From Promethearchaeota archaeon (GTDB lineage Archaea > Asgardarchaeota > Lokiarchaeia > Sigyniarchaeales > SOKP01): DNA of 30,925 nt. The position numbers and the translations under genes were made by a program. Positions 5,327-29,406 of this stretch are shown here, one piece after another. The notes below the pieces were generated by a model. The model was not told where the DNA came from. It was given only the letters and a program-made list of their open reading frames with translations, and did not search any database. Position 1 is the stretch's first letter; each line of letters begins with the position of its first letter. The stretch covers positions 1 to 30,925 of the forward strand of contig JBHLNT010000035.1 of the NCBI GenBank assembly GCA_048941265.1, read 5' to 3'.

Positions 5327-5860
5327 ATGCGAACGGCTACCTTTAAAATTTGCATTTTTGGAAGTGGCGGGGTGGGAAAGACCACTCTTATTCAACGATA
5401 TGTTACAGGTCAATTCAGCCAGAGTACGAAAATGACGATCGGGGTTGATATCGTTTCTAAAAAGGTACAAATAGAAGACTGGTTTGTCACTCTGCAGATA
5501 TGGGATTTCGGGGGTGAAGAACGTTTTAGATTTTTCTTACCTGCATATGCCAGAGGATCCTTTGGAGGCATTTATATGTATGATATTACACGGTATACTT
5601 CTTTAATGGATTTAGATGAGTGGTTATCTGTGTTCAAGAAAGGATGTGGATATGATCTTAACCCAATTCCTATATTAATGGTTGGCGGAAAATTAGATCT
5701 TGCGGAAGGACGAGCAATTCCTTTTGAACAAGCTTTTAGTTTTGCCCAATCTCGTCATATTTATAAAATTATTGAATGTTCTGCCAAAACAGGTCAAAAT
5801 GTAGAGTCAATTTTTACAGAAATTACTTCTAGAATAATGAAAAATATGTCCCTGATTTAA
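5327..5860 (+). CDS. Rab-like small GTPase (Ras superfamily)
   Basis: G1 GSGGVGKT, G2 TIGVD, G3 WDFGGE, G4 GGKLD, G5 CSAK. No C-terminal Cys prenylation motif. Confidence 0.93.
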   Translation: MRTATFKICIFGSGGVGKTTLIQRYVTGQFSQSTKMTIGVDIVSKKVQIEDWFVTLQIWDFGGEERFRFFLPAYARGSFGGIYMYDITRYTSLMDLDEWLSVFKKGCGYDLNPIPILMVGGKLDLAEGRAIPFEQAFSFAQSRHIYKIIECSAKTGQNVESIFTEITSRIMKNMSLI

Positions 5861-6039: not shown

Positions 6040-6573
6040 GTGCGAACCGCGACATTTAAAATATGTCTTTTTGGAGATGGAGGTGTTGGAAAAACAACCC
6101 TTACCCAAAGATATGTGAGCGGTCGTTTTGATAAGAGCACAAAAATGACAATTGGGGTCGATATTGCTACTAAGATTCTAGAAGTCAGGGATTGGAAAGT
6201 AACTCTCCAAATATGGGATTTCGGAGGTGAAGAACGTTTTAGATTTTTCTTACCCGCATATGCCAGAGGTTCATTCGCAGGGATTTTTATGTATGACATT
6301 ACCAGATATAGTACTTTAATGGATTTTGACACATGGATGGATGTTTTTCAAAAAGGGATAGATTTTAAATCGAAGGCGATTCCTATCATTATGGTTGGAG
6401 GAAAGATAGATCTCGACCATAAGAGGGGTGTTTTTTATGATGAGGCATTTAATTTCGCGCTCTCAAGAAATATTTTCACTCTTATAGAATGTTCTTCGAA
6501 AACTGGGGAGAATGTTGAATTAATCTTCAAACTAATCTCCCATATAGTTATGAAAGAAATGGATTATATTTAG
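6040..6573 (+). CDS. Rab-like small GTPase, tandem paralog of 5327..5860
   Basis: G1 GDGGVGKT, TIGVD, WDFGGEERFRFFLPAYARG (identical to the upstream paralog), GGKID, CSSK. GTG start, same length (177 aa). Confidence 0.93.
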   Translation: MRTATFKICLFGDGGVGKTTLTQRYVSGRFDKSTKMTIGVDIATKILEVRDWKVTLQIWDFGGEERFRFFLPAYARGSFAGIFMYDITRYSTLMDFDTWMDVFQKGIDFKSKAIPIIMVGGKIDLDHKRGVFYDEAFNFALSRNIFTLIECSSKTGENVELIFKLISHIVMKEMDYI

Positions 6574-8245: not shown

Positions 8246-8407
8246 ATGGCCGCACCAAAAACAAAATCACAAACAAAGATATTAATATCTAGTTGTGATA
8301 AGTGCGGCAGTGTAATGGTTGAGAGGATGCTTGCGATAAGAAATTCGAAAGCATTTATTAAGATACTACAATGTAAAGTTTGTAGACATTGGAAAAAAAT
8401 TAACTAA
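8246..8407 (+). CDS. 53-aa zinc-ribbon microprotein
   Basis: Manual translation MAAPKTKSQTKILISSCDKCGSVMVERMLAIRNSKAFIKILQCKVCRHWKKIN*. Contains CxxCG-x21-CxxC. SD-like gggag at 8232-8236. Confidence 0.75.
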   Translation: MAAPKTKSQTKILISSCDKCGSVMVERMLAIRNSKAFIKILQCKVCRHWKKIN

Positions 8408-8581: not shown

Positions 8582-9646
8582 TTGAATAAGAAAACGCTTT
8601 CTCCAATAGGATGGCTAAATAGCCTTACAGGTTCGTGTGTTGTGATCTTTGGTTGTATGTTTGGACTTTATTTCATGTACAAATCTAAACAATCTAACGC
8701 CAAGCTATTATTTTTTACAGGAATTTTAACGATCTTTGTAAGTCTTCTATATTTAGGACAATTTATTGATTTTTTAGCAATTCTAATTACCGGAGAGAAT
8801 TTACATCCATATCAGCTATATGCAATCTTATGTTATATATGGGTTGCTCCAGCCGTGATTTTCGGTTTCTATTTAGGAGCTGAAATAATAATTCCAGAGA
8901 GAAAAAAAGTTATCGTAATAATATACACTTTTATAGGGATTATTTTTGAAGTGTTTTTATTTTTAGATACGAATAATTCCTTTATTTTCAGACTCCCTGC
9001 TCATCCAGGAGAAGATATAATTGATGTAAATTTCAATAGAACTTCTCCAACATTCATATTAATTGTCTTTTTCTTACTTTCTGCTTTAATTTTCAATGGC
9101 GTTGGATTTATTTATAAAAGCTTTCAATCAACTGGAATAATAAGGAAACGATTTTTGTTTTTATCAATTGGATGGATAATGTTTGTACTTGCAGGAGCTC
9201 TTGATTCTTTAACATCACCGGGAATTGGTCTATTTTTAGTAAGAATTGGAATGCTAAGTAGCTCTTGGTTTTGGTATTTTGGCTTAAGGGAGGAGAAGGT
9301 TAAGGCAATTGAAATATCTAATAAGAAGTCAATGTCCGAGGAGTCTGATATAACGTTAATAGAAAGACTTTCTTTGTTACACGATGAGCAACTTTCAGAA
9401 AAGGATGTTAATTTATATAGAGAACAAATTATTTGTTTAGTATGTAAAGGAGACGCATTAGGATTTGTTTATATTTGTCCAGATTGTAAAGCTTTATATT
9501 GTGAAAAGTGCGCACGATCTTTGATTGATTTGGAAAATGCCTGTTGGATATGTAACTGTGCTATTGATAAATCAAAACCCGTCAAAATCTATAAAAAAAA
9601 GGAAATTGAAGATTTTAAAAAGCAAAAGAATAATCTTAAAAACTGA
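8582..9646 (+). CDS. 7-TM membrane protein with C-terminal C4C4 RING-like zinc finger
   Basis: Seven hydrophobic segments in aa ~10-235. CLVC-x10-CPDC-x4-CEKC-x10-CWIC at nt ~9434-9553. Confidence 0.8.
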   Translation: MNKKTLSPIGWLNSLTGSCVVIFGCMFGLYFMYKSKQSNAKLLFFTGILTIFVSLLYLGQFIDFLAILITGENLHPYQLYAILCYIWVAPAVIFGFYLGAEIIIPERKKVIVIIYTFIGIIFEVFLFLDTNNSFIFRLPAHPGEDIIDVNFNRTSPTFILIVFFLLSALIFNGVGFIYKSFQSTGIIRKRFLFLSIGWIMFVLAGALDSLTSPGIGLFLVRIGMLSSSWFWYFGLREEKVKAIEISNKKSMSEESDITLIERLSLLHDEQLSEKDVNLYREQIICLVCKGDALGFVYICPDCKALYCEKCARSLIDLENACWICNCAIDKSKPVKIYKKKEIEDFKKQKNNLKN

Positions 9647-9765
9647 AGATTAATCACTCTAGTGTAATTTTAAAATAATGTTTTTATGTTGAATATGACT
9701 ATTTACTTAAGAACAAACAAAATGAGTGAAGATCAATCTCATCTTCAAAGAAAATGTGAAAATTA

Positions 9766-10866
9766 ATGGTATCTTCCTTTGTATTACTTGAGGGAATCAT
9801 TACAATTGGAAATTATGCTTTAGGGGTGAGTATGGGATTATATGCTCTATATAAAGCAACAAAAACGGAAGCAAAAATCTTAAAATATTTTGGCATTACG
9901 ATTTTATTTTTAAGTCAAATCTATTTAGTTACTATTTTGGATTTTTTGACTATTATCATAACAGGAAATAATATGGATAATTCTTTCGGATTATTTTCAC
10001 TTCTCACTTATATTTGGATTGGTCCCTCTATTATTTTAGGAATGTATATTATTTTTGAAGTTACAATTCCAGAGAAAAAGTGGTATATTTTACCAATTTA
10101 CGTTGTATTAAGCGTTGTTTTTGAAATTTTATTATTTTTAGATCCTTTAAATTCTTTTAAGATATCATATACTACTCCGGATGGAGGAATTATTCACTCT
10201 AGTTTGGTTTTTGGTACAGTGCTTTTTGTAATTCTTAGTTTTATATTCGTGTCAGCCTTTATACTTTTTGGAGTAGGATTTTTTATTATAGGAATCCAAA
10301 CAACAGGAATACTTAGAGAAAAATTTATTATTTTATCATATGCTTTTATAGCATTTCTTAGTTTAGGTGCAGTAGATATTTTAACTACTCCCGGTATTTA
10401 TGTAATTTTTCTAAGGATAGGTGAGTTAAGTTGTGCTGTGGTTTTTTATTTTGGAATAAAAGAGGAATCGGTTGAAGTTTCAGAAACTAAAATTATAAAA
10501 TCCGAATTTGAGGGCCCAAAGATTTCTTTGGTAACTTCCCTCGAAACTTATTCTAAACCAGATGAGTTGTCTGAGGAGGCCATACAGTATATGAGGGAAC
10601 AAACGCTTTGCATAATTTGTAAAGCTAAACTCCAGGGTTTTGTATCCATTTATATATGCCCGCAATGTAAAACATTCTACTGTGAAAAATGTGCAAAAGA
10701 GTTAGTACAAATAGATAACATGTGTTGGGGTTGCATGAAAGCGATAGATGATACCAAGCCTATTAAACCGATTGAGGAGATAGATAAAGATATCATTGTT
10801 GATAGTTCTCAAAAGCCTCCAAAAAAGTTAAAAAAGAAAAATAATATTGCAGAAAAGCATGAATAA
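9766..10866 (+). CDS. 7-TM membrane protein with C-terminal C4C4 RING-like zinc finger (paralog of 8582..9646)
   Basis: Aligns end to end with the upstream gene (ITG.N, YIW..P, IPE.K, FE..LFLD..NSF, TG..R..F, T.PG, R.G). CIIC-x12-CPQC-x4-CEKC-x10-CWGC at nt ~10609-10734. Confidence 0.8.
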   Translation: MVSSFVLLEGIITIGNYALGVSMGLYALYKATKTEAKILKYFGITILFLSQIYLVTILDFLTIIITGNNMDNSFGLFSLLTYIWIGPSIILGMYIIFEVTIPEKKWYILPIYVVLSVVFEILLFLDPLNSFKISYTTPDGGIIHSSLVFGTVLFVILSFIFVSAFILFGVGFFIIGIQTTGILREKFIILSYAFIAFLSLGAVDILTTPGIYVIFLRIGELSCAVVFYFGIKEESVEVSETKIIKSEFEGPKISLVTSLETYSKPDELSEEAIQYMREQTLCIICKAKLQGFVSIYICPQCKTFYCEKCAKELVQIDNMCWGCMKAIDDTKPIKPIEEIDKDIIVDSSQKPPKKLKKKNNIAEKHE

Positions 10867-11032
10867 ATTTAATTTATAGGAATATTTTAATAAGAAATGT
10901 ATTTTAAAAACTCTAAATTAGTTTTAAGTGTGTCATCAAAATTAATATATATGTTGGCACTATTTATTAATTAATACAATCAAAATCAATAATTATCGTG
11001 CCAAAATAAGATTATTACCAAGGGTGGAAAAC

Positions 11033-11287
11033 ATGAAAATAAGTGTAGAGGATTCACGCACTGGAAAATTAATTAAACTTGACGTAAAAGAGCACCATAT
11101 AATAGAAAAAATAGTAGACATTATCATAAAACATATGGGCATAATTAGCGTCGAACAACGCTCTTATACCTTAGTCTTGAATGGCCAAGAATTGCCAACA
11201 AATATTACAGTAAAGGATGCTGTACATAAATTCGGTTTAAAAGAAAATGATAAATTAGCATTATGGGCTAGAGTGGTAGGAGGATAA
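11033..11287 (+). CDS. ubiquitin-like protein (beta-grasp) ending in di-glycine
   Basis: MKISVED..TGKLIKLDV (compare ubiquitin MQIFVKTLTGKTITLEV), LVLNGQEL, GLKENDKLAL, and C-terminal ARVVGG*. Alternative GTG start at 11024. Confidence 0.88.
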   Translation: MKISVEDSRTGKLIKLDVKEHHIIEKIVDIIIKHMGIISVEQRSYTLVLNGQELPTNITVKDAVHKFGLKENDKLALWARVVGG

Positions 11288-11351
11288 TTTTATCCATTTT
11301 TTTCTTAATTTTATAATATTTTGAGTAATAGTAGAGTTATAAAGAACTATT

Positions 11352-11933
11352 TTAATCATCAATAATAATGATATCATCAGATTCTTCGGCAGCTTTTTTT
11401 TCTTCTTCTCCTTCTTTAATATTATACTGGTTTCTAAGCTCATCCATAGTATTTTGTTTGAAAAACTCAGCGGCCTCCGCACATATGGGATAATTTAGGG
11501 GATCTTCAGGATTTGGATTTTCAACTAGCAATTTTAAGGCTTTCACCGTCGTTTCTAAATCAGATAATCGGGACCATTTCTTCAAAACATTTAAACAGAT
11601 ATATCCTGTCCCAGGTTTATCTGAAGATGATAGTTCTACGGGATGAATATTAGGATGAAAGATATCCGAATACCAAGCGAAGTCAATTCCTCCTGGATAT
11701 GGAAATGAACGATTTATCTTCAAAAACACGCGATGACTCCATTTCGGAACTAAATCTATGCCTTCACTATCCTTTACATATTCAAAACCTAAAGCTTTAA
11801 TATTAATCATTATTTCGATGCTATTTTCTTCTCGAATAATTGAATTTTCTTCAATAACTGCTAAACTCTTTAATCCCTTTAACTCGTTTTCGAGTCTGTC
11901 CTTCCATATTTCTTGAGGTAGTTCTGGACTCAT
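11352..11933 (-). CDS. ubiquitin-conjugating enzyme E2 (UBC fold)
   Basis: RLENEL, FPYP, IFHPNI (HPN), GYICLNVLKKWS (catalytic Cys), LLVENPNPEDPLN..AAE, and an acidic C-tail. ATG at 11933 has gaggg upstream; the ORF track extends to a TTG at 11957. Confidence 0.93.
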   Translation of the reverse strand: MSPELPQEIWKDRLENELKGLKSLAVIEENSIIREENSIEIMINIKALGFEYVKDSEGIDLVPKWSHRVFLKINRSFPYPGGIDFAWYSDIFHPNIHPVELSSSDKPGTGYICLNVLKKWSRLSDLETTVKALKLLVENPNPEDPLNYPICAEAAEFFKQNTMDELRNQYNIKEGEEEKKAAEESDDIIIIDD

Positions 11934-12067
11934 AAGAAGACCCTCTTTAATTCCCAACCCATTTTTTTTATAATTAATGATAATTTATATTAAAAAATTT
12001 ATTTTTTTCGTATATAATAATAACTTTACAACTTTTTGATTTTGGTCTATTTTGTAAAAATTTTTTG

Positions 12068-12946
12068 TTACTTTTTATATGAACACACCCAGCATTCATC
12101 ATTTTTTATTTTGGTAATAATTTCAAATGAATTTGTTAATCCATTATAATTTAATTGTTTACCAATTAATGGTTCTCCTATATCAGGGTTCCATTCCCCG
12201 CTTTTTTTGAACGAATCTAACCCTAATAAAAACTTTATTACTTGTTGAGATTGTATACCTCCTATAATAGCAGTGGTGGTGATAAGAGTTGCCATTTTTC
12301 CTATAGTTTCCCCATTTGCAGATTCGATTTCCTGACCAGTACAAGAATACTTTTTCCACATAAGATCCAAATCCATACCTGAGACACCGCATTGCATGCA
12401 CGCCGCATCCTTAACTTTCGAATAGACAGCCTGAACTGTTCCGTAAAATTCATCTATCCCAGAATCTACGAAAGGAACTCCGTAATAATATGCATAATTG
12501 TTAGATTGTAGTCGGGCTTCGATATTATCAACGCAGGAACAGATAACGTCTGATTTTTGATACAAACTTTTATCGATATCGTTTAAATCTTCCTTAAAAG
12601 CAATGATTTCTGTTTCTCCTAAATTTTTTACGGCCTTTTTTACCACATCTACTTTATATTCTTGTTTTTTCGCACTTTTTTTATCAAATAATACACAACG
12701 ATTAAGATTGGATATGTTAATAGTATCATAATCAATCAAAATTAGTTTTCCAATACCCGTTAATACTAAATTTTTTATAAGTTCATTACCTGTTGCTCCA
12801 GCTCCAATAACCATTACTGTAGCTTTAGAAATTTTTGTTTGATCCCATCCTATTATTCTTTTTTGACGATCATATTTATCTTCATCAAAAGAGCCCTCAC
12901 TTAAAATTTCATATTCTTCTTCATTTTTATTTTCAGATAATTTCAT
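12068..12946 (-). CDS. ubiquitin-activating enzyme E1-like (ThiF/UBA family)
   Basis: YDRQ, VIGAGATG, DYDTINISNLNR, CVDNIEAR, Zn pairs CMQC and CWVC, and a candidate catalytic Cys in KYSCT. Confidence 0.92.
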   Translation of the reverse strand: MKLSENKNEEEYEILSEGSFDEDKYDRQKRIIGWDQTKISKATVMVIGAGATGNELIKNLVLTGIGKLILIDYDTINISNLNRCVLFDKKSAKKQEYKVDVVKKAVKNLGETEIIAFKEDLNDIDKSLYQKSDVICSCVDNIEARLQSNNYAYYYGVPFVDSGIDEFYGTVQAVYSKVKDAACMQCGVSGMDLDLMWKKYSCTGQEIESANGETIGKMATLITTTAIIGGIQSQQVIKFLLGLDSFKKSGEWNPDIGEPLIGKQLNYNGLTNSFEIITKIKNDECWVCSYKK

Positions 12947-12995
12947 GATGAATCAAGTATTAATCTAAATTAGATTATAAATTCTGATTTCAAAA

Positions 12996-13484
12996 CTATG
13001 GCTTAATAATTGCATAACTTAAATTTTTATATTTTTTATTCGAATTATGGTCTAAAGTAAAGAATTCAAGTTCATTCTTTATGGGGTCAACAACTAAAGC
13101 TACTTGGTAAGATTCAGGAAAAAAAAACTCTTGTGTATGGATATCAGTAGAGGAAAGAAATGGTCCAAATCCAGGATGGCTATGCCACCATCCAACAATT
13201 CTTAATTCTTCATTATTTTTTTTATGCTTTAATTTCTGAAATTTTTTCTCGTATTTCCCAGCTGCACCTTCTATTTGGGATGTTGAATATTTATCACTAT
13301 GGACTGCTCCTATGATAAAAAGCTGGTCTTCAATGACAATATAATTTTTTTCATTCCATTTATAGATATTTCCTATTAAATATCCAAAGATTTCTAATTT
13401 CTCTTTTTTACAAACTTTTGTAATTTCGTCTAATATATTTTTATAAATATAAACGGGGAATACAAAATTTTCTTCAATACTCAT
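12996..13484 (-). CDS. JAB/MPN+ (JAMM) metalloprotease, Rpn11-like deubiquitinase
   Basis: EIFGYLIG...IVGWWHSHPGFGPFLSSTDIHTQ (E...HxH-x7-S-x2-D) and ALVVDP. Confidence 0.93.
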   Translation of the reverse strand: MSIEENFVFPVYIYKNILDEITKVCKKEKLEIFGYLIGNIYKWNEKNYIVIEDQLFIIGAVHSDKYSTSQIEGAAGKYEKKFQKLKHKKNNEELRIVGWWHSHPGFGPFLSSTDIHTQEFFFPESYQVALVVDPIKNELEFFTLDHNSNKKYKNLSYAIIKP

Positions 13485-13541
13485 ATTTATGCTTGTAATT
13501 CTTAAAATTTTAATTAATTGTAAATAAACATATTCATCTCA

Positions 13542-14471
13542 TTAAAAAACTTGCATTTGCTTCATTTCAATCTTTTCGACTACAGATTTTTGCAATATAT
13601 CTTTCAGTAATGAAATGAATTTATCTTTTGCATCATCTTCCGTAGCAGAATACCCATATGTTTTTATTTTTTCGAACATTTCTTCGATTTTTTGTGGTTC
13701 AAAAGCGTATTCTTTTAAATCTTGAAAGTTTGCGATAATATAAAAATCAGTGTTTTTGACCAAAGGTTTTAGTCGGGAAAATAAGTTTTTTGTTCTGGAG
13801 AGATTGCTTGCCGCTGAGTTAGATACGATACAAATAGCATCCACTGAATTTAGTAACGGTCGGTAGAGTTTAGATTTATCAACTAATTCGCTTAAGTCCA
13901 TTTCTCTTAACGTTATTTGTTTTATATTTCTTAAATCAGTAATGTCTATAGGTTTTTGAATAATCTCGTTTAAATCTTCATCCAATTCTAATATTGTTTC
14001 ACCAGGAAATAAGTTCATTATTGTGGTTTTTCCTACCCCTGGCTCGCCAACTAATAATACTTTAGGAGGTATAAATATATTTTCTTCTACATATTCATCA
14101 AACTCGTCGAAAATTGAAACGCATCCACTAAATGCTTTAATATTTTCTCTATATCGTCCCATGAATTCATTTTTCATAAGTTCAAGCTTCACTCTAGCTT
14201 CTTCTTCAGAGTCATCTATATCTATGACTAATACAAACATACAGCCAAATTCTTCATCGTAAGAGTAAATAAAATTGAAATTTCTAAAGTTTAGTGAATC
14301 TATGGCACCTCCTTGGATCTCTTTTGCAAAACTACTTATAGCATTGAGAAACCCGCCAACTAAATCTTCTTCAATTATATTTTCATTCTTTTGAATTTTT
14401 CCAATAAAATCTTTTGAATAACACAATACTCCACCAGGGGCCATTATTAAAATACGCGAGATAATTTTCAA
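13542..14471 (-). CDS. N-terminal longin-like domain fused to a divergent small-GTPase domain
   Basis: aa 1-133: RILIMAPGGVLCYSKDF...LVGGFLNAISSFAKE...MFVLVID...FDEFDEYV (longin pattern). aa 137 onward: KVLLVGEPGVGKTT, ANFQD, YSAT. TTG start preceded by GGAGG. Confidence 0.75.
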   Translation of the reverse strand: MKIISRILIMAPGGVLCYSKDFIGKIQKNENIIEEDLVGGFLNAISSFAKEIQGGAIDSLNFRNFNFIYSYDEEFGCMFVLVIDIDDSEEEARVKLELMKNEFMGRYRENIKAFSGCVSIFDEFDEYVEENIFIPPKVLLVGEPGVGKTTIMNLFPGETILELDEDLNEIIQKPIDITDLRNIKQITLREMDLSELVDKSKLYRPLLNSVDAICIVSNSAASNLSRTKNLFSRLKPLVKNTDFYIIANFQDLKEYAFEPQKIEEMFEKIKTYGYSATEDDAKDKFISLLKDILQKSVVEKIEMKQMQVF

Positions 14472-17606: not shown

Positions 17607-18122
17607 TTATTCATTTTTTATAAGCCATTGTGCCATCATTTTAAATACTTTATGAACATTATATCCTGTTTTTGATGATGTCTTTATATAATCCATCATA
17701 TTGAATGTATCCTTGATATTTAGGGCAGTATCATCATTAATTGCAATAGCTTCCTCAAGATCCAATTTGGTTCCAACAAGTATAATTGGTAGATCTAAGT
17801 CGTGTATTCTGAAAATATTAATCCATTCTAAAATTCCACTCATTTTTGGCATTCGAGTCAAATCTATTAAGAGTAATGCACCTCTCGCACCCATTACATA
17901 ACTAGACATAAGATGCCTAAATTGCTCTTGACCTCCTAAATCCCAGAGTTGAAGTGCACATTTTATGCCATCAAAATTCATCTGCTTTATGAAGAAATCA
18001 ACGCCTACAGTCATAATGGTACTCTCATCAAACATACCATCTACAAATCTGCGTAATAGTGTTGTTTTCCCTACACTAGCATCGCCACCGATTAGAATTT
18101 TAAAAAGGAAATATTTTTGCAT
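17607..18122 (-). CDS. Rab-like small GTPase
   Basis: LFKILIGGDASVGKT, TVGVDF, LQLWDLGGQEQFR, VGTKLD, TSSKTG. No prenylation motif. Confidence 0.93.
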   Translation of the reverse strand: MQKYFLFKILIGGDASVGKTTLLRRFVDGMFDESTIMTVGVDFFIKQMNFDGIKCALQLWDLGGQEQFRHLMSSYVMGARGALLLIDLTRMPKMSGILEWINIFRIHDLDLPIILVGTKLDLEEAIAINDDTALNIKDTFNMMDYIKTSSKTGYNVHKVFKMMAQWLIKNE

Positions 18123-18234: not shown

Positions 18235-20514
18235 TTAGTTTAAATCGAATTTCAAAATCTCATCTATTTGTTTAAAATGAGAATTTAACCTTTTGTTAAG
18301 AATTTTTTGAAGTTTAATTTTTGAAAGATTATGAGGATCCTTCCCCATCAACTCTATGGTCGTTTTCTCTGCAATATTATGACATTCCTTACCAATTTCT
18401 GCTAATAGTTTATGATTTTGATTATTTGCATCAAATTTCTTAATTGGCACCTCAAACGGAATTTTAAAAATATGTCTGGAGCTTTTTTTTATTTTAACCT
18501 GTTTCGATATTAGAATTGAATTTAGGATTGATGATAAATAATAAGCTTCATCAAGATTATTTGTATCATAAAAAGATAAATCACTGGTTATTAAAAAATC
18601 TCCTATGACCACTGCGGAATTTATCATAGAGCCTGAATTATTATACACACATTTTATTTTAGATTGTTGTCGAGGATTTATTAGCTTCGACCATCGATTA
18701 AGATTGTCCATAAGCGATGCATGTTTAGTAGTATCTTTTTTGTTTTTCAAATATATTTGATTGATTTTATCATAGAATTTCTTAGCATTATCAGTTAATT
18801 TATTGTATTTAAAACTTAGATCATTCTTAGAAAGAGGTAAAAAAACATTGTAATAATTAATCACATGAAATTTAATTAACTCCGTACTTTTTATAACGTT
18901 GAAAATATATTTTTTTTCTATAATTTCATTACTAAATTCTTTAATATTCCATGGAGCTTTTGCCCTCTTGAATATTCTCGTATCTGGATCTATTTTAATT
19001 AATTTATTTTTTATTTCTTCATAATTCACGAATATTAGATTTCTTGGATTTAAATCTGCTCCCTTATGGAATAGTTTTTTATAAATACTTTCACCATAAG
19101 GTAAAAGATCTTTAGTTAACTTTTGTGAGATAAATTTCTTTGTATAGGTCCTTTTGCCTCTTTTCTCAATAAAATAAGGTAATAAATTATCTTCCTCAGC
19201 AATTTCTAATACTAATTTACTAAAATAATCAATCTGGTTTGCTTCACTTTTTATTTTCACGTAAAAATGTTTAATCTCTTTATTGTACAATTTTGACTTA
19301 TTTTCTGATTTTTGTGCAAATAGGCAGATGAAATCAATGTTGAACAACTTTTCTAATCGCGGTTCAAAGCTCCATATTTTAACGTTCTTAAATCCCCTAA
19401 AATTGCGGAAACGGGAAGCATGGGAACCTGTTATCACTCCTTTGGTTATAACTAAGAAAACCTTACCATTATTCTTTAAATAAACTTCTTTTGCTTGGTA
19501 AAAAAATAGCGCAGAAATTTCAATATTCAAGATGTTTTTTGGTAAGGGTTTTATATCTAATTTTTCTGCTAACATTTTTATCTGATTTTGATATTTTATT
19601 GAGGAGATTTCCCGAAAAGTATACCAAGGAGGATTTCCGATAATTAAATCAAATGAATTTAAAAAATTTTGAATTAAAACTTTATTATTAGGAATAAATT
19701 GTTGAGGAAAAAGGGAATCTACAACAAATAGACATATCTTTACCTTTGGAGAAAATTCCTTAAGCAATATTAAAAAATTTATTTTAGTTATGAAAATAGA
19801 AATAGGGTTAATATCAAAGCCATAAATATTATTTATCGCTAAAATCTTTTGTTGTTCAGTTTTATTTGACGATAGAATTCTCTTTATTATCTCTATTAAA
19901 AAATTCCCAGAACCACAACAAGGATCAAGAATTCTTTCACCGAAATTATATGAATTATCTATCATTTTTTCTACTAAAAAAGGCATAGTATAAAATTCGC
20001 CACTTTTATGTCTAATTATAGGTGAAATTATTTTTTGAATCAGAAAATCAAACTTATATACAGGTTCAATATCTAATTTAAAAAGATAGTCAGCTAATGC
20101 ATTGATTAGTGATGGAAGAAAACTTATTTTATTGCTTTCAAGTAAGGAAAATATCGGATTAAAATACTCAAAATCAAAAAGATCAATATTTTTAAACTTA
20201 GTTTTGACTTTATATTGTAGATTTTTAACGCTTGAAATGAAATGCTTATTATTATAAACTAATTCAGCTGTTTTTAAGACATATTTTGATACGAAGGAGT
20301 GTCCGATGAAAAATATTAAAGCAATAGTTATATAAAGTTGAATATTTGTATTTTTTGAACCATAAATTATTTTAAAATCGTTTTGCCATTTTTTAAACTC
20401 TGCTACTTCATAAATTTTATCTTCAAAAAGAATTTTCTCTAACTCCGTGACCTCATGTTTAATGATTATAAAATCAAATTTGATATTTTGGGAATGTTTT
20501 GGGTTAGAAATCAA
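18235..20514 (-). CDS. N6-adenine DNA methyltransferase (gamma-class motif order) with C-terminal target-recognition region
   Basis: GEFYT (motif X), ILDPCCGSGNF (motif I), IYGFDIN, FDLIIGNPPW (motif IV), and C-terminal YYLSSILNS. Confidence 0.85.
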   Translation of the reverse strand: MISNPKHSQNIKFDFIIIKHEVTELEKILFEDKIYEVAEFKKWQNDFKIIYGSKNTNIQLYITIALIFFIGHSFVSKYVLKTAELVYNNKHFISSVKNLQYKVKTKFKNIDLFDFEYFNPIFSLLESNKISFLPSLINALADYLFKLDIEPVYKFDFLIQKIISPIIRHKSGEFYTMPFLVEKMIDNSYNFGERILDPCCGSGNFLIEIIKRILSSNKTEQQKILAINNIYGFDINPISIFITKINFLILLKEFSPKVKICLFVVDSLFPQQFIPNNKVLIQNFLNSFDLIIGNPPWYTFREISSIKYQNQIKMLAEKLDIKPLPKNILNIEISALFFYQAKEVYLKNNGKVFLVITKGVITGSHASRFRNFRGFKNVKIWSFEPRLEKLFNIDFICLFAQKSENKSKLYNKEIKHFYVKIKSEANQIDYFSKLVLEIAEEDNLLPYFIEKRGKRTYTKKFISQKLTKDLLPYGESIYKKLFHKGADLNPRNLIFVNYEEIKNKLIKIDPDTRIFKRAKAPWNIKEFSNEIIEKKYIFNVIKSTELIKFHVINYYNVFLPLSKNDLSFKYNKLTDNAKKFYDKINQIYLKNKKDTTKHASLMDNLNRWSKLINPRQQSKIKCVYNNSGSMINSAVVIGDFLITSDLSFYDTNNLDEAYYLSSILNSILISKQVKIKKSSRHIFKIPFEVPIKKFDANNQNHKLLAEIGKECHNIAEKTTIELMGKDPHNLSKIKLQKILNKRLNSHFKQIDEILKFDLN

Positions 20515-20675: not shown

Positions 20676-21293
20676 GTGGAAACGTTGACTAGCTCTGAAA
20701 TTAAAATTTCAAAAAGATTTGAAAAAGGAGTTTATTTTTCATGTGAAATGTGTGGAGCTTGTTGTCGAGGTTTTGACGAAGGAGAAGTATATATATATGA
20801 AGATGATATTATTAGGCTTACCAAATTTTTAAATATGAAGAATAAATTTAGCCTTAGAAAATTTGCCAGAAAATACCTTAAACTTGTAGACAATACTTTT
20901 TTTTGGAAGGAACCAGGTGAAAGTAGAGGCAAAAACTATAAATTTAAAACATTAGGTTTTAAATTTACCGGTGAAGACGAGCATTGTGAATTTCTAGGAG
21001 AGGACAATAAATGTACTGTTCATAAAGCAAGACCTTTTCAATGTATTGCATTTCCCATGGGATGGAATATGCTAATGAATAGCATTACTAATTTCAAGGA
21101 TTATTCAAAAAAATGTCCGGCGCTCAGAAATTCTCTTGAGAATGAGGGAGGCCATTTTTATTCACGAGAAGAAATTATAAGATTAGCGACTCAAGAATAT
21201 GAAATGGAAAAACGATTTTTTCTGAAAATGAAAAATTATAATTTTGATATTTTTAAAGTGTATAAATTTCTTCCTAAAGATATAACTTGTTAA
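20676..21293 (+). CDS. YkgJ-family cysteine cluster protein
   Basis: FSCEMCGACC...CEFL...CTVHKARPFQCIAFP...CP. Confidence 0.88.
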   Translation: METLTSSEIKISKRFEKGVYFSCEMCGACCRGFDEGEVYIYEDDIIRLTKFLNMKNKFSLRKFARKYLKLVDNTFFWKEPGESRGKNYKFKTLGFKFTGEDEHCEFLGEDNKCTVHKARPFQCIAFPMGWNMLMNSITNFKDYSKKCPALRNSLENEGGHFYSREEIIRLATQEYEMEKRFFLKMKNYNFDIFKVYKFLPKDITC

Positions 21294-21513: not shown

Positions 21514-23913
21514 TTGAAAATTGGATTGTTTATATGTGACTGTGGGAAAAATATCTCGGGGATCATTAATAATAAAAAATTAATTGAGCACTTTAGGGAA
21601 TATCCGGACGTAAATGTTATTGAGAATCAATATTTATGTTCTGAATCGGGATTAAAAGAGCTAACTGATGAATTAAAAAAGAAAAAAATCGATCGGGTTG
21701 TTGTTGCAGCATGTTCTTTTAAATTACATGGGCAACTTTTTCGTAAAACTATTGAGCAAGCAGGAATTAATAGATTTTTAGTTTCATTTGCCAATATTCG
21801 TGAACAAAATTCATGGGTTCATCCAGAAGAACCTGAAAAAGCAACCCAAAAAGCAATAGATCAAATTACAATGGCAATTGAACAAGTTAAACTTTTAGAG
21901 CCTTTAGAAGTACAATTTTCAAATATAACTCCCTCAACGTTAGTAATAGGGGGTGGTATTGCGGGTATTAAAGCTGCGATGGTAATTGCAGATGCGGGAT
22001 ATAAAGTTTACTTAGTTGAGAGGGATCTAACTATTGGAGGGCATATGGCACTTTTTGACAAAACTTTTCCCACTCTAGATTGTAGTATTTGCATTTTGGG
22101 CCCTCTAATGAGTGAAATTAAAGATCACGCTAATATTGAGTTATTAACGTTCTCTGAAGTGAAAAAAGTTGAGGGGTATGTAGGTAATTTTGATGTAACT
22201 ATTCAAAAAAATCCTCGATTTATTGTTGAGGAAAATTGTGTAGGATGTTTTGATATATGTAGAGATGTTTGTCCTATAGACGTAAAAAATACATTCTATC
22301 CGAGAAAAGCAATTGATGTACCTTATCCCCAAGCTATCCCATTACTTCCTAATATTTTACAAGATTATTGTATAGGTTGTAAAGCTTGCCAACAAGCTTG
22401 TGGAGATCGAGATGCGATAGATTTTGATCAAAAAGCCAAGGATATTAACATAAACGTAGGTTCCATTATCGTCGCAACCGGATTTAAGACATTTGATCCA
22501 TCCATTTTAGGAGAATTGAACTACCAAAAATACCCTGATGTTATTACTACGATGGAAATGGAGCGATTGCTTAATAATGATGGTCCCTCGAAAGGTAGGG
22601 TTATAAGACCCTCAACTGGAGAGCCTCCGAAGAAGATTTCCTTTATCTTATGTGTCGGATCTCGAAATGAAAAAATTCATCACGACTATTGCAGTCAAGT
22701 CTGTTGTAATGTATCTATAAAGCAAGCCGTTCTGTTAAAGCAACAATATCCGGATATAAAAATAAGTATATATTATAACGATATAAGAGCTGTTGGAAAA
22801 AATTGTGAGGAATTTTACAACCGAGCAAGGGAAGTCTTTGGTATAAAATTTATTAAAAGTAATATTTCTGCGATTTTAAAAAGCGATGTAAGTGATCAGC
22901 TGTTGATTCGAGGGGAAGATGTTATTGAAAATCGACTCTTCGAAAATAAATCTGATTTAGTAGTATTGGCAGTAGGGTCTGAACCTGCTGAAGGTACAGA
23001 GAAGTTAAGCCAAATCTTAAATATATCTCAAGATCCATACGGATTTTTGCTCGAAAAACACCTTAAAGTTAGACCCTCTGAAACTTCCGTCAATGGGATA
23101 TATTTAGCAGGAATGATACAAGGTCCAAAAGATATTCCTTCTAGCATTGCTCAAGCAGAAAGTGCGGCAGCTAAGGCAATTGCACTTATAGCAAAAGGAA
23201 AAGTAGAATTAGATCCTCATATTGTGTGTCTTGATAAAGAAAAATGCGATTTATGTAGATTATGCGAAAATATTTGTATATATAATGCGTTAAAAATTGA
23301 AAATAAAACATTAGAAGTTATACAAGCTAATTGTACAGGATGTGGTGCATGTGCTGCCATGTGTCCGCAAAATGCATTATATATTCCCGGGTTTACAAAA
23401 CAACAAATTTCGGCACAAATTAGAGCAATCTTACAGAAAAAAAGTGAATCTCCTTTAATAATAGGTTTTCTATGCAATTGGTGCTCTTATTTAGGTGCGG
23501 ATCTGGCGGGGACAAGTAAAATAACGTATCCAACAAATATCAGAACAATACACGTGATGTGTACTGCAATGCTCGATCCCTCATTAGTTTTTGAAGCTTT
23601 CTTTAATGGAGCTGATGGGGTCTTAATTGCTGGTTGCCATGAGCAAGATTGCCACTATCAAACAGGATTTATTAAAGCCAAAACACGATATGAAAGCATA
23701 AAAGAATTACTTGCCGAAACAGGAATAAATGAAAATAGAGTAAGAATTGAAAGCATCTCTGCGGGAGAGGGTGAAAAATTTGCTCATGTTGTCGCTGAAT
23801 TTAAGGAACAACTAAAAAAGCTAGGTCCCATAAAACCTGATGAATACAAAAGACCTATCCTCACAGAAAAAGAAATAAAAGCAAAAGAAAAAGCAAGATT
23901 AAATGAAATATGA
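21514..23913 (+). CDS. hdrA: heterodisulfide reductase subunit A fused to C-terminal MvhD [2Fe-2S] domain
   Basis: KIGLFICDCG, VVVAACS, ANIREQ, VIGGGIAG, DKTFPTLDCSIC, ferredoxin motifs, CVGSR, YCSQVCC, then MvhD motifs GFLCNWCSY.GAD.AG and GVLIAGCHEQDCHY. TTG start with GGAGGA SD. Confidence 0.93.
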   Translation: MKIGLFICDCGKNISGIINNKKLIEHFREYPDVNVIENQYLCSESGLKELTDELKKKKIDRVVVAACSFKLHGQLFRKTIEQAGINRFLVSFANIREQNSWVHPEEPEKATQKAIDQITMAIEQVKLLEPLEVQFSNITPSTLVIGGGIAGIKAAMVIADAGYKVYLVERDLTIGGHMALFDKTFPTLDCSICILGPLMSEIKDHANIELLTFSEVKKVEGYVGNFDVTIQKNPRFIVEENCVGCFDICRDVCPIDVKNTFYPRKAIDVPYPQAIPLLPNILQDYCIGCKACQQACGDRDAIDFDQKAKDININVGSIIVATGFKTFDPSILGELNYQKYPDVITTMEMERLLNNDGPSKGRVIRPSTGEPPKKISFILCVGSRNEKIHHDYCSQVCCNVSIKQAVLLKQQYPDIKISIYYNDIRAVGKNCEEFYNRAREVFGIKFIKSNISAILKSDVSDQLLIRGEDVIENRLFENKSDLVVLAVGSEPAEGTEKLSQILNISQDPYGFLLEKHLKVRPSETSVNGIYLAGMIQGPKDIPSSIAQAESAAAKAIALIAKGKVELDPHIVCLDKEKCDLCRLCENICIYNALKIENKTLEVIQANCTGCGACAAMCPQNALYIPGFTKQQISAQIRAILQKKSESPLIIGFLCNWCSYLGADLAGTSKITYPTNIRTIHVMCTAMLDPSLVFEAFFNGADGVLIAGCHEQDCHYQTGFIKAKTRYESIKELLAETGINENRVRIESISAGEGEKFAHVVAEFKEQLKKLGPIKPDEYKRPILTEKEIKAKEKARLNEI

Positions 23914-24428
23914 AGCTGTTCTTAAATTACTGGAAAGCCTTAAACTTTGCTATAATCAAATATGGAGATTTGAAACGTAAATCTGGAGATATTCATTACT
24001 TTATTCATCCTCTTCGGATTACATTAATTCTTAGAGCTACGGGTTATAATGAATTTGATCATGAGACCCTAATGATTGCTGCATTATTTCATGATTTAAT
24101 TGAAGATACAGATACTTCCTTAAGTGAAATCGAAAATAAATTTGGTAAAAATATTGCCTCCATCGTAAATCAAGTAAGCATCCCAATAAAGGCAGAAAAA
24201 GAAAAGCATCTAAAAAATCTCAAAAATGCGTCTATTGAAGCAAAAATCATAAAATTAGCAGATCGTTTAGATAATCTTATTGATCTGCCCCTAGAAGCTT
24301 GGTCAAAGGATCAACAAAAATCTTATGCTGAACAAGCGAAAATCATTTTAAAATCTTGTGGAGATGCCAATTCTGAATTGGCATTAAGGTTAAAGCAAGA
24401 AATTGACAGAATTTTGAATCAAGATTAG
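23910..24428 (+). CDS. HD-domain hydrolase of the RelA/SpoT small alarmone hydrolase (Mesh1-like) type
   Basis: RKSG..YFIHP, IAALFHDLIEDT, FG..IA.IV, and IKLADRLDNL. 4-nt ATGA overlap with hdrA. Confidence 0.85.
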   Translation: MKLFLNYWKALNFAIIKYGDLKRKSGDIHYFIHPLRITLILRATGYNEFDHETLMIAALFHDLIEDTDTSLSEIENKFGKNIASIVNQVSIPIKAEKEKHLKNLKNASIEAKIIKLADRLDNLIDLPLEAWSKDQQKSYAEQAKIILKSCGDANSELALRLKQEIDRILNQD

Positions 24429-24585
24429 ATAATTCGCTCAAAAAAAATATAGTTAGTAACTCATTTGTTCTAGATAACTTATTTAAAATTTTTATATCTC
24501 CGAATTCTATAAATCTTATTAAGAGAATTATGCTATCATATAATAATAAGAGGATTAAATCTTAAATTTAACTTTAAAAAAGATA

Positions 24586-25869
24586 ATGAGAATAAGAGCA
24601 ATCACTATTGGGCAAAATTTTCCGATTTTCTATGAATTCCTCGAAACTGAGGCATTCCTTGAAGAAAAACTTGAGAAATTTAAACCTTTTTTCAATGGAT
24701 TAATTGAAGAATTTAAAAGAATTAATTTACCGGTAGAAACAAAGCGAATCTGTTCCCAACCTTTATTAATGTACGAAAGTCAGCTAACTTATAGAAAAGA
24801 TGTTCAGGAGACTTTATCTCTTTTACATGAGGAATTCTCAATTCTACAAAAGCTATTCAAAAAATACGGGATTGATTACTTTGCATGTAGCACGATGCTA
24901 GCAGATGAATTAGGGCATTTTGGTATATTTGAAAAGTTAATATTAGACGAGTTTGATAAGTATTTAAAAGAATTTCCAAGCCTTTTTACTTCAATCCCCG
25001 TCATTTCGGAAAATAAAATAAGTTTTCCTGCTTTAAAGTCGGCTGCAAAAATTATTAAAAAGCTCTCTGAGCCTGATCCTTTTAAAAATTTACAGTTTTG
25101 TGTTAGCTGTAATGTTCCGCCAAACACCCCCTTTTTTCCAGCAGCGTATCATAGTAACTCCGATAAACCAGCCTTTTCAATAGCATTAGAAATGGCAGAC
25201 GAGATTATCTCTATATTTAACAAAGCTTCAAATTTAAAAGAGGCAAAATTTAATTTAGAAAAAAGATTCGATGAAATTTATGAAGAAGTTTTGAAGATTT
25301 CTGAAAGAATCAGCTACAAGTATAATTTAGAATTCAAAGGTATGGATTTTGCTCCTGCTCCTTTTCCACGGTTCGATCGGAGTATTGGAACGGCAATTGA
25401 AAGTTTTGGAATTGAATATTTTGGTGGCCATGGCTCATTATTTGCAATTGCTCTTATAGCAAACTCCATACCAAAAAAAGAAAAAGTAATAGGCTTTTCA
25501 GGAGTTATGTTACCCGTATTAGAGGATTTTACTTTATCTCTAAGATTAAAGGAAAAGAAATTTACTATTGACACATTATTGCTGTATTCAACTGTATGTG
25601 GTACTGGGCTAGATTGTGTCCCATTACCTGGTAGTATCACCGAAAGAGAATTATTTTATATCCTATTAGATCTGAGTACTATATCTATCGCTCATCATAA
25701 ACCGCTTACTGCGCGATTAATGCCAATACCCGGCAAAGAAGCGGGAGATGATGTAAAATTTGATTTTGAATATTTTTCCCCCTCTAAAGTAATGGATATT
25801 AAAAGATTATCCGACTCCAAAAAAAATGACATATTTAAACGAAATGAGGACATTTTTAATTTTCTTTAA
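24586..25869 (+). CDS. DUF711/UPF0210 family protein
   Basis: MRIRAITIG, N...TPFFPAAYH, G.D...APFP, IGFSGVMLPVLED, YSTVCGTGLDCVPLPG, and KPLTARLMP. Confidence 0.88.
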   Translation: MRIRAITIGQNFPIFYEFLETEAFLEEKLEKFKPFFNGLIEEFKRINLPVETKRICSQPLLMYESQLTYRKDVQETLSLLHEEFSILQKLFKKYGIDYFACSTMLADELGHFGIFEKLILDEFDKYLKEFPSLFTSIPVISENKISFPALKSAAKIIKKLSEPDPFKNLQFCVSCNVPPNTPFFPAAYHSNSDKPAFSIALEMADEIISIFNKASNLKEAKFNLEKRFDEIYEEVLKISERISYKYNLEFKGMDFAPAPFPRFDRSIGTAIESFGIEYFGGHGSLFAIALIANSIPKKEKVIGFSGVMLPVLEDFTLSLRLKEKKFTIDTLLLYSTVCGTGLDCVPLPGSITERELFYILLDLSTISIAHHKPLTARLMPIPGKEAGDDVKFDFEYFSPSKVMDIKRLSDSKKNDIFKRNEDIFNFL

Positions 25870-26014
25870 TCTAAAGAAAACATTTTTTAACGTAGATACC
25901 TAAATATAATTGAACTATTCTAATGAAATGTAAAAGATTTAAACAATAATATCTAAATATTAAATGGAGTAGATAATAAGTTCCAAAGAAAAAGAATAAA
26001 AAGAATAACGTTCC

Positions 26015-26476
26015 ATGATTGAAAATATTTCTAAAGAAAGAAAAAGTAAGGATTTACTATTTTTTAATGAAGCTATCGAATATTTCAATAGATTTGATAA
26101 GAAAGATTTTGTTTTTAATCAAGATCCTACCCAATTAAGCCCAAATCAATTAAGAGATCAGATGCTCACAGAGTTAAATAATTTAAGAGAGATCATTGCG
26201 AATCATCCCGACTTAAAATTAAAAAATCTTAGCGAAGAAGAGAAAAAACTGTATTCAGAATTTATGAAATTCTACTCAACTTGTCCCATATGCCTCGAGA
26301 CTTTGCATTATGCGAATCTGAAGAAATTCTATTTTGATGAGGACACTCAGGAAATTAAAGAAAAATTAATTCAATTCATGAATATTAATGAAAAAAAGAG
26401 AATTAAAAGATTGAATTATGATTTCGGAATACCTTGCTGTAAGTGTTTTAAGCAATATTTTGAAGATATAGAATAA
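26015..26476 (+). CDS. hypothetical protein, probable zinc-binding (CPIC...CCKC)
   Basis: 153-aa ORF with a helical N-terminal half and two distant CxxC pairs. No family recognised. Confidence 0.65.
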   Translation: MIENISKERKSKDLLFFNEAIEYFNRFDKKDFVFNQDPTQLSPNQLRDQMLTELNNLREIIANHPDLKLKNLSEEEKKLYSEFMKFYSTCPICLETLHYANLKKFYFDEDTQEIKEKLIQFMNINEKKRIKRLNYDFGIPCCKCFKQYFEDIE

Positions 26477-26748
26477 AGATCGAGAAATTCCTTCTTCATT
26501 TTAGAGTTGGATTATCTGCTATTATTAAACTCTTAACAAGGTTTAAATAATTAAGTGATGTAATAAAATTAAGAAAGAATTAATCAATTTAACCAAAAAA
26601 TACTCTTCTTATTTCTATTTCTTATTTTTTAAAGTTGGAATTATAAAATATTACAGAAAAAGATAATAAATTGCTCAAATCTATTTTATTTAATAAATAT
26701 CAATTATTATTCTACACAGATATTTTGCTGTAATATGAGGGATATATA

Positions 26749-29325: not shown

Positions 29326-29406
29326 AAAATCCAGATTTTAATAGCAATAATACTTATTTTTTAATAATCAAGACTAATTAATTTTAAGTATAGAATAGAA
29401 CGTCAA

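Follow-up and report, generated by a model that had tools for sequence, protein, structure and literature searches.

Can the ligase step of an archaeal ubiquitin-like conjugation cascade be carried by proteins embedded in the membrane? Archaeal ubiquitin systems studied so far employ small soluble RING proteins, and the trafficking-type proteins of Asgard archaea (longins and small GTPases) are usually described as scattered genes whose partners are not known. The question is raised by a cluster of seven genes at positions 8582 to 14471 of a 30,925-nt stretch of the Promethearchaeota contig JBHLNT010000035.1 (the window), which encodes a ubiquitin-like protein (Ubl), E1, E2 and JAB enzymes, a longin-GTPase fusion and two seven-transmembrane (7TM) proteins ending in a zinc finger. 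In this operon, all the parts of a Ubl cascade are physically linked to polytopic membrane proteins with a RING-like finger and to a longin-GTPase, and two eukaryote-like toolkits are brought together. We conclude that it probably represents a lineage-specific, self-contained, membrane-anchored Ubl conjugation system of one Promethearchaeota order, with the finger proteins acting as E3 ligases. The computed evidence consists of the genes themselves with their intact catalytic motifs, the folds of their products, a conserved synteny, coupled phyletic distributions and a predicted docking geometry.

Enzymes, modifier and conserved neighborhood

The open reading frames (ORFs) of the window were listed and scanned with Pfam and NCBIfam. 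The seven ORFs of the cluster form two convergent blocks with intergenic gaps of 49 to 157 bp, the two finger genes and the Ubl gene facing E2, E1, JAB and the longin-GTPase (Table 1), precisely the arrangement drawn in an earlier, sequence-only reading of this DNA. That reading had also remarked on the absence of a small soluble RING gene, and none is present among the window ORFs by ORF list or Pfam; the sole small zinc protein is a C4 ribbon at 8246-8407. E2, E1 and JAB score above the curated Pfam cutoffs, and Ubl, fingers and GTPase fall below threshold by sequence. The NCBIfam scan of the window proteins added nothing specific, and the database names of homologues agree with an origin in Promethearchaeota, the Asgard archaea.

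The E2, E1, JAB and Ubl look intact, as judged from conserved residues. The E2 matches PF00179 (UQ_con; 37.8 bits against a cutoff of 27), and H101, P102, N103 and C121 are invariant in 19 aligned sequences, so that the HPN motif and catalytic cysteine are kept; its best solved relatives in a PDB profile search are eukaryotic UBCs (E = 5.5e-7). The E1 matches ThiF in Pfam (158.4 bits; cutoff, 28.1), and among solved structures it is closest to Uba1 (adenylation domain, E = 2.6e-23), SAE2 and UBA5. Its Gly-rich nucleotide loop and zinc cysteine quartet are kept, G48, G50, G53, R83, D140 and the zinc cysteines C183/C186/C285/C288 being at least 95% conserved in 67 sequences. Conserved Cys202, in an S-C-T-G segment between the zinc cysteine pairs, is a candidate for the catalytic cysteine forming the E1~Ubl thioester. 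The JAB protein matches PF01398 (48.5 bits; cutoff, 22.5) and has the full JAMM motif (E31, H101, H103, S111 and D114, at least 95% conserved in 64 orthologues).

G86 and G87 of the Ubl are at least 95% conserved in 65 orthologues. The window copy terminates at this GG, and processing of Ubl precursors is implied because most orthologues carry 1 to 6 extra residues beyond it. Among curated models the Ubl matches just Rad60-SLD, below the cutoff (16.8 versus 23.8 bits). Nearly all matches of its profile in the PDB are ubiquitin or NEDD8; these are weak (13 to 14 bits end to end on single chains), and polyubiquitin chains match at lower E-values than single ubiquitin or NEDD8 chains. The Ubl nevertheless has the highest mean column identity of the system (79%), followed by E2 (58%), the 7TM-finger proteins (45%) and the longin-GTPase (41%). 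The E2 ends in an acidic run, four Ile/Val residues and further acidic residues (window positions 11352-11420), resembling a SUMO-interacting motif and present in 18 of 19 aligned E2s; this tail may dock the Ubl or another part of the system. A similar acidic/Ile tail ends some tandem longin-GTPase paralogues (L065:13838-14809 and L066:13809-14759).

Conservation of the neighborhood links these enzymes to the finger proteins. All 75 places outside the window's own genome were fetched and annotated with profiles built in this analysis; one family (f1) accounts for 73 loci. These f1 loci have a constant core of longin-GTPase, JAB, E1 and E2 converging on the Ubl. Their fetched flanks contain 74 finger genes, often as two or three tandem copies per locus, compared with 1.65 expected from genome copy number and size. 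At least one finger gene is found in the fetched flank of 52 of the 73 loci, and within 5 kb in 51. In 31 of the 58 loci with at least 1.2 kb of upstream sequence, a finger gene lies <700 bp upstream of the Ubl gene and in the same orientation. The refuting condition set in the earlier reading, finger genes no more frequent than their copy number predicts, thus did not hold. In 57 of the 63 loci with enough sequence, the longin-GTPase gene comes first in the JAB-E1-E2 operon, directly upstream of JAB.

Direct finger-Ubl adjacency differs among genera (5/5 loci in g1, 20/35 in g11, 6/14 in g12, 0/3 in g5 and 0/1 in g13). The slot upstream of the Ubl gene in g5 holds a CxxCxxCC protein of 237 to 248 amino acids (aa) (PF03692, 45.7 bits; L058:10705-11451, L059:8641-9354 and L060:4340-5053), and the window has a gene of the same family at 20676-21293, 9 kb from the cluster.

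The finger family and the E2 also occur in the same genomes. Orthologues of the E2 are single copy in 73 of 161 genomes of the class. A profile search of 400 genomes of the phylum detects the E2 subfamily in 73, which without exception belong to two families of a single order (69/134 in f1, plus the window's own genome, and 3/4 in f4). In a hand tally, the finger family (best E, ≤1e-15) is present in 70 of 73 E2-positive and 15 of 88 E2-negative genomes of the class, 11 of the latter 15 being <90% complete. The same split is seen within genus g12 (14/15 E2-positive versus 4/27 E2-negative genomes).

The window's genome has one E2/E1/JAB/Ubl set of this type only. A second, canonical cluster is found on another contig of that genome (L138, contig C327, 786-3936), where a ubiquitin gene (PF00240, 27.9 bits) is accompanied by genes for an E1 of 410 aa, an E2 scoring 86.2 bits and a JAB of 275 aa. 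The window system is an additional, divergent paralogous system beside this canonical ubiquitin cluster. The canonical genes are followed by a 312-aa ORF with seven cysteines and no Pfam match.

Structural models bear out the assignment of the remaining core gene as a longin and small-GTPase fusion: the N-terminal domain has the longin fold (b-b-a-b-b-b-a-a), and the C-terminal domain has an Arf/Rab-like G-domain fold with G1, G4 and G5 motifs. The strand equivalent to G3 ends in a conserved N-S-x-x-x-N segment. Loci contain one to four longin-GTPase copies, and 13 loci have a long form (>2 kb). In the two long forms on which Pfam was run (L061:5368-8010 and L064:11778-14420; ∼880 aa), a C-terminal CN_hydrolase domain of the nitrilase superfamily was found (39.5 and 38.3 bits; cutoff, 23.2), which might give the Ubl system an associated amidase or isopeptidase. 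In one genome, an operon-type GTPase domain lacking the longin is fused to TIR (TIR_2, 57.1 bits) and adjoins the Ubl gene (L070:10520-11476).

Finger proteins as candidate membrane ligases

The AlphaFold2 model of the first finger protein, TMZ1, has a predicted local distance difference test score (pLDDT) of 79.6 (mostly >90 in the transmembrane [TM] part) and seven long helices, with a β-hairpin in the fourth loop, as expected from its 7TM label in the earlier reading. Because the basic residues of TMZ1 cluster in loops 1, 3 and 5, we infer an N-out/C-in topology from the positive-inside rule, which would place the finger in the cytoplasm. In Foldseek, the best 50 matches of the whole TMZ1 model are G-protein-coupled receptors and are weak (best E, 8.2e-4; TM-scores, 0.3 to 0.45, at most 0.49; root mean square deviation, 6 to 9 Å); the Hrd1, MARCH and Doa10 families are not among these best 50, which does not exclude them. 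Comparison of the TM domain with the Atlas leads to unannotated Promethearchaeota clusters, with a weak lead to HisKA_7TM (0.89, covering 10% of cluster members).

The finger has the pattern C-x2-C-x10-12-C-x2-C-x4-C-x2-C-x10-C-x2-C, whose spacing is C3HC4/C4C4 compatible, within a family signature EEEV..YREQ.iCLVCK ... CWvC..piD.SKP. The C4C4 label given to it earlier agrees with the eight conserved cysteine columns in 19 paralogues and orthologues aligned at full length: seven do not vary at all, and conservation of the eighth (C307) is 90% or higher. In the PDB, the best match of the finger profile is the C4C4 RING of TFIIH p44 (E = 2e-4, profile positions 13 to 63), and further matches include the RBBP6, RNF4, RNF113A, PCGF and Mdm2 RINGs and also PHD fingers. 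In the TMZ2 paralogue, residues 278 to 329 have subthreshold matches to C1_2, Prok-RING_1, zf-C3HC4_3 and zf-RING_2. The predicted finger has two short strands, then a helix beginning at Cys5/Cys6; this modeled secondary structure is compatible with a cross-brace that binds two zinc ions, as is the profile alignment, which is in register with the RINGs of p44 and RBBP6. In the finger proteins, Lys-rich tails come after the finger.

The expansion of 7TM-zinc finger genes, which the earlier reading attributed to Lokiarchaeia, is evident in the window's genome, with five full-length 7TM-finger genes, TM-only paralogues, the finger in other architectures and at least 18 finger matches. Of the 74 finger proteins in the f1 flanks, 61 are polytopic (44 with the 7TM domain found here and 17 otherwise), 4 have one or two TM segments and 9, mostly contig-end fragments or remnants, have none. 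Besides the 7TM domain, the variable N-terminal modules include two or more other polytopic families, as well as FG-GAP propellers, TPRs and, in a protein with zinc ribbons, a coiled coil. It is therefore the finger and not the 7TM domain that is conserved as a partner, and a constant E2-docking module combined with variable targeting domains is the pattern of E3 ligases. Two truncated finger ORFs of 58 aa adjoining the Ubl gene (L061:11126-11302 and L069:10617-10793) look like remnants of decayed 7TM-finger genes.

The earlier reading had suggested modeling the finger with Ubl-charged E2. The complex modeled here consisted of E2 residues 8 to 178, the finger and two zinc ions, in three runs and with three controls. 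The finger docked onto the E2 with a score of 0.70 (runs, 0.73, 0.68 and 0.70), compared with 0.00 for the best control; in calibration, 116 of 157 solved complexes and 2 of 215 mismatched pairs attained this mark. Agreement of contacts did not fall below 86%, nor did partner pLDDT fall below 81. The interface comprises E2 residues 11 to 25 (helix 1) and 130 to 133 (the loop after the catalytic cysteine) and finger residues 20 to 24, 43 to 47 and 51 to 57 (the first zinc loop, central helix and CWxC loop). The E2 interface positions P11, L13, P14, I17, R21, N24, E25, L131 and D133 are invariant in the orthologue alignment. An interface on E2 helix 1 and the loop after the cysteine is what we take to be canonical RING-E2 geometry. 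What this model shows is a likeness of the E2-finger pair to a RING-E2 pair rather than binding itself.

From these observations we infer E3 activity, membrane targets, a processing role for JAB and a role for the GTPase. The 292-aa E1 would adenylate the GG terminus of the Ubl and hand the Ubl to Cys121 of the E2. The C4C4 RING-like finger of the 7TM proteins, at the cytoplasmic face of the membrane, would dock on the E2, at its helix 1 and its SPA-equivalent loop, and act as E3. Because the finger-E3 would sit on this membrane face, the Ubl would be transferred to lysines of membrane or membrane-proximal proteins, possibly also to the Lys-rich tails of the finger proteins themselves. JAB would remove conjugates and, because most Ubl orthologues extend past GG, trim Ubl precursors. 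The longin-GTPase, encoded by the first gene of the enzyme operon, would be an obligatory partner, most likely a nucleotide-dependent switch or adaptor that gates or localizes the cascade.

Several observations weigh against this reading. First, related genomes are not independent, so that synteny and phyletic counts overstate the number of events, and per-genome finger counts may be undercounts, as ≤37 candidates were scored per genome; a 5-fold undercount of finger copies would nevertheless still give about 8 expected genes versus the 74 observed. Second, the association is incomplete. No finger gene is found in the fetched flank of 21 of the 73 f1 loci, some owing to contig ends; all three g5 loci lack a finger beside the Ubl and have the CxxCxxCC protein there instead; and three of the five full-length 7TM-finger genes of the window's genome are on other contigs, away from E1 and E2. 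In family f4, moreover, the E2 stands alone: phmmer detected no E1, JAB, Ubl or finger neighbor at L072, L073 and L126, and a Pfam scan of L072 and L073 found unrelated neighbors (TrmI and CDP-alcohol phosphatidyltransferase).

Third, the window fingers score below the RING cutoffs (zf-C3HC4_3, 15.6 versus 27 bits; zf-RING_2, 13.7 versus 27.3 bits; Prok-RING_1, 16.8 for TMZ2 versus 29.1 bits). Among 17 fingers, Pfam matches were to C1_2 (15), double zinc ribbon (13), zf-RING_2 (9), Prok-RING_1 (8; best E, 2.1e-4) and zf-C3HC4_3 (6). Because C1_2 matches more of the 17 fingers than any RING model does, sequence places the finger no more precisely than in the binuclear treble-clef supergroup. 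Fourth, the score of the complex may reflect memory of the many solved RING-E2 complexes, and the custom alignments and riding zinc ligand differ from the setup in which the score was calibrated. Fifth, the G3 DxxG motif (switch II) of the GTPase is not recognizable in an 18-sequence alignment.

The sequence-only reading centered on a Ubl/E1/E2/JAB system of its own, linked to a longin-GTPase, in which polytopic membrane finger proteins take the E3 position. This proposal is partly supported: synteny, phyletic co-occurrence and predicted docking speak for it, and E3 activity is a prediction from these. That reading went further in suggesting a trafficking-type GTPase and possible ligand gating. 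Both suggestions are conjectural: the GTPase has an Arf/Rab-like fold but no recognizable DxxG, and the resemblance of the TM domain to G-protein-coupled receptors is weak. With ligand gating, the finger proteins, those with other sensor-type domains included, would be receptor-E3s: an extracellular or membrane signal, perceived by the variable N-terminal domain, would switch the cytoplasmic finger, with the longin-GTPase as a nucleotide-dependent relay. We regard this extension as speculative and rather unlikely. If true, it would amount to a prokaryotic signal-to-ubiquitylation pathway at the membrane, serving, e.g., receptor or transporter turnover or membrane remodeling, and to an Asgard analogue of eukaryotic receptor ubiquitylation and trafficking control.

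Alternative explanations and known systems

The cascade could be real and serve in conflict or antiviral defense, as in the bacterial Ubl operons Bil, Bub and Cap2/Cap3 of the cyclic-oligonucleotide-based antiphage signaling system (CBASS), with the membrane finger proteins as sensors or effectors. This concerns biological role more than mechanism and could coexist with the E3 model. The patchy distribution within one family (69/134 genomes), the tandem duplication and variable number of finger and longin-GTPase genes per locus, the GTPase-TIR fusion beside the Ubl at one locus and domain-level PADLOC matches for E1 (E1-E2, 54.1 bits) and JAB (35.2 bits) would be in keeping with such a role. 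However, there is no system-level PADLOC match, and E2, Ubl, fingers and longin-GTPase lack a defense-model match except for three weak P-loop matches of the longin-GTPase. The E1 scores far better on ThiF (158 bits) and eukaryotic Uba1, the window neighbors are housekeeping or signaling genes with no clear defense island, and the unusual conservation of the Ubl is atypical of arms-race parts. In addition, the parts of the Asgard defensome paper that were consulted do not mention such a system. We therefore consider defense an unlikely role.

The bacterial defense operons are likewise prokaryotic E1/E2/Ubl/JAB operons (PMC11601596 and PMC10557695). The present system differs in its membrane RING-like finger and longin-GTPase, in having its closest E1 and E2 relatives in eukaryotes and in having E1 and E2 as separate genes, unlike Cap2. 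Membership in CBASS Cap2/Cap3 or Bil-type systems was rejected, as PADLOC matches only E1 and JAB, at the domain level, and E1 and E2 are unfused.

A second alternative is that the finger proteins are substrates, receptors or scaffolds that bind E2 or Ubl without activating transfer, the E2 conjugating independently of an E3. By Pfam, the finger is no closer to RING than to C1/DC1, B-box and double zinc ribbons, a conserved basic "linchpin" residue after the last cysteine is lacking, and the Lys-rich tails and the finger-less g5 loci would also fit. Conversely, the predicted docking uses the E2 surface and the finger elements of RING E3s, many active RING E3s are among the PDB profile matches, and the constant finger joined to a variable targeting domain is the E3 pattern. 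On this evidence a nonligase role seems improbable.

It is very improbable that E1 and Ubl form a sulfur carrier pair (MoeB/ThiF with a MoaD/ThiS-like protein) for cofactor synthesis or tRNA thiolation: the E1 is single domain and reaches 94 bits on the MoeB/ThiF NCBIfam models, well below their cutoffs, but the operon encodes a UBC-fold E2 with HPN-Cys and a JAMM protease, the Ubl profile matches ubiquitin and NEDD8 rather than MoaD or ThiS, the closest solved relatives of the E1 are Uba1, SAE2 and UBA5, and the locus lacks cofactor synthesis genes. Chance adjacency of an expanded family to a Ub-like locus, the caveat attached to the earlier reading, has next to no probability left: the family is indeed expanded, with three of five full-length genes elsewhere, but the excess over copy number expectation, the direct co-oriented adjacency, its recurrence in genera g1, g11 and g12 with different N-terminal domains and the phyletic split all argue against it.

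Seen as an E3-bearing cascade, the window system is a variant of the archaeal ubiquitin operon. Like the Ub/E1/E2/small RING/Rpn11 cluster of Caldiarchaeum subterraneum and Asgard clusters of ubiquitin and endosomal sorting complex required for transport (ESCRT) genes, it is an operon in which a GG Ubl goes together with E1, UBC-fold E2 and JAB/Rpn11-type protease genes and a binuclear finger occupies the E3 position. It differs from them as follows: instead of a small soluble RING, it has a finger at the C terminus of polytopic membrane proteins, which often come in two or three tandem copies; its E2, Ubl and E1 together form a divergent, paralogous set; the genome also has a canonical cluster; a longin-GTPase gene lies inside the operon; and the distribution is limited to two families of one order. 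The soluble-RING cascades of Caldiarchaeum and Helarchaeia have been reconstituted (PMC5654768, PMC6043591 and bioRxiv 10.1101/2023.07.25.550441). In the portions of the full-text literature covered, neither this operon nor a membrane-anchored RING protein of an Asgard archaeon is described; the supplementary tables on Asgard clusters of orthologous genes (asCOG) and ESCRT, which lie outside that coverage, might list the genes.

Eukaryotic polytopic RING E3s (Hrd1, Doa10/MARCH6 and MARCH) combine a multipass membrane domain with a cytoplasmic RING-type finger that recruits the E2. The window finger proteins have the same architecture and, by analogy, presumably the same logic, but homology of the TM domain was not detected, the finger is C4C4 rather than RING-H2 or RING-CH, and the system works with a Ubl, E1 and E2 of its own. 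Its narrow distribution points to an invention within the lineage and not to an ancestor. With a range of one order and a TM domain for which no homology to Hrd1 or MARCH was detected, the system therefore bears more on the ease with which membrane-E3 architectures arise than on the direct ancestry of eukaryotic ones.

Bacterial versions of the prokaryotic RING families described by Burroughs, Iyer and Aravind in 2011 reportedly have TM helices and neighbor Ubl or JAB genes. Like the window fingers, Prok-RING_1 (PF14446) is a prokaryotic binuclear treble-clef finger linked by neighborhood to Ubl systems; the window family differs in its subthreshold score on that model, its own signature and its fusion to 7TM and other sensor-like domains. 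The C4C4 RING of TFIIH p44/Ssl1 (PDB 5o85_B and 1z60_A) has the same ligand pattern, but the score is marginal and p44 is a transcription factor subunit without a membrane domain.

The longin-GTPase resembles the Rag-like longin/roadblock-GTPase fusions of Asgard archaea in joining a longin to a small GTPase of Arf/Rag/Rab-like fold. In contrast to these, the longin is N-terminal, DxxG is not recognizable, the gene is inside a Ubl enzyme operon and some orthologues add CN_hydrolase. Longin-GTPase fusions are known as a class in Asgard archaea, and small GTPase genes of cultured strain MK-D1 are generally not in operons with their regulators (bioRxiv 10.1101/2020.10.19.343400 and PMC10933270 for the former and PMC10933270 for the latter).

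Remaining features of the window

Coordinates are collected in Table 1, in which the probable start codons of Ubl and E2 are those suggested by orthologue alignments. The C4 zinc-ribbon ORF is found in the same place in five loci (the window, L054, L055, L057 and L085), all in genus g1, and is single copy in the window's genome; it is a genus-specific accessory and not a RING.

Table 1. Features of the Ubl cluster and its flank in window coordinates
Feature	Positions	Strand	Remarks
Small C4 zinc-ribbon ORF, 53 aa	8246-8407	+	Head of finger-Ubl block; subthreshold zinc-ribbon Pfam matches only
TMZ1, 7TM protein with C-terminal C4C4 RING-like finger, 354 aa	8582-9646	+	Candidate membrane E3; finger at ∼9380-9589
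TMZ2, paralogous 7TM C4C4 finger protein, 366 aa	9766-10866	+	42% identical to TMZ1; finger at ∼10555-10770
Ubl, 87 aa	11024-11287	+	Ends VVGG-stop; start probably ATG at 11033 (84 aa)
Divergent UBC-fold E2, 201 aa	11352-11957	-	HPN, Cys121, acidic/Ile-rich C-terminal tail; start probably ATG at 11933
Single-domain E1-like adenylating enzyme, 292 aa (ThiF/MoeB/Uba5 size)	12068-12946	-	ThiF match
JAB/JAMM metalloprotease, 162 aa	12996-13484	-	PF01398 match; probable Ubl-processing/deconjugating enzyme
Small-GTPase-like domain, residues 133-309 of longin-GTPase fusion	13542-14075	-	P-loop, NFQD and SA motifs; no recognizable DxxG
Longin domain, residues 1-132 of 309-aa longin-GTPase fusion (13542-14471)	14076-14471	-	

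The 157-bp gap upstream of the Ubl gene contains two copies of a 25-nt direct repeat (10935-11003; 76% identical, 44-bp spacing) with inverted TGGCA/TGCCA half-sites. The repeats may mark a promoter or operator of the Ubl gene, chance being possible in this AT-rich region; the G+C content of the window is low, at about 26 to 36%. A tRNA search of the window found none. Five DNA or metagenome runs from two studies contain the locus, with no RNA run listed for it.

Three Ras-family small GTPase genes (PF00071, 130 to 140 bits) lie within 6 kb on either side of the locus, at 5327-5860, 6040-6573 and 17607-18122. Apparently unrelated to the cluster are a 759-aa N6-adenine methylase of the Eco57I/MmeI type (18235-20514) and, at 21514-30315, an HdrA/MvhD-like flavoprotein, a DUF711 protein and a glycyl-radical enzyme with its activase.

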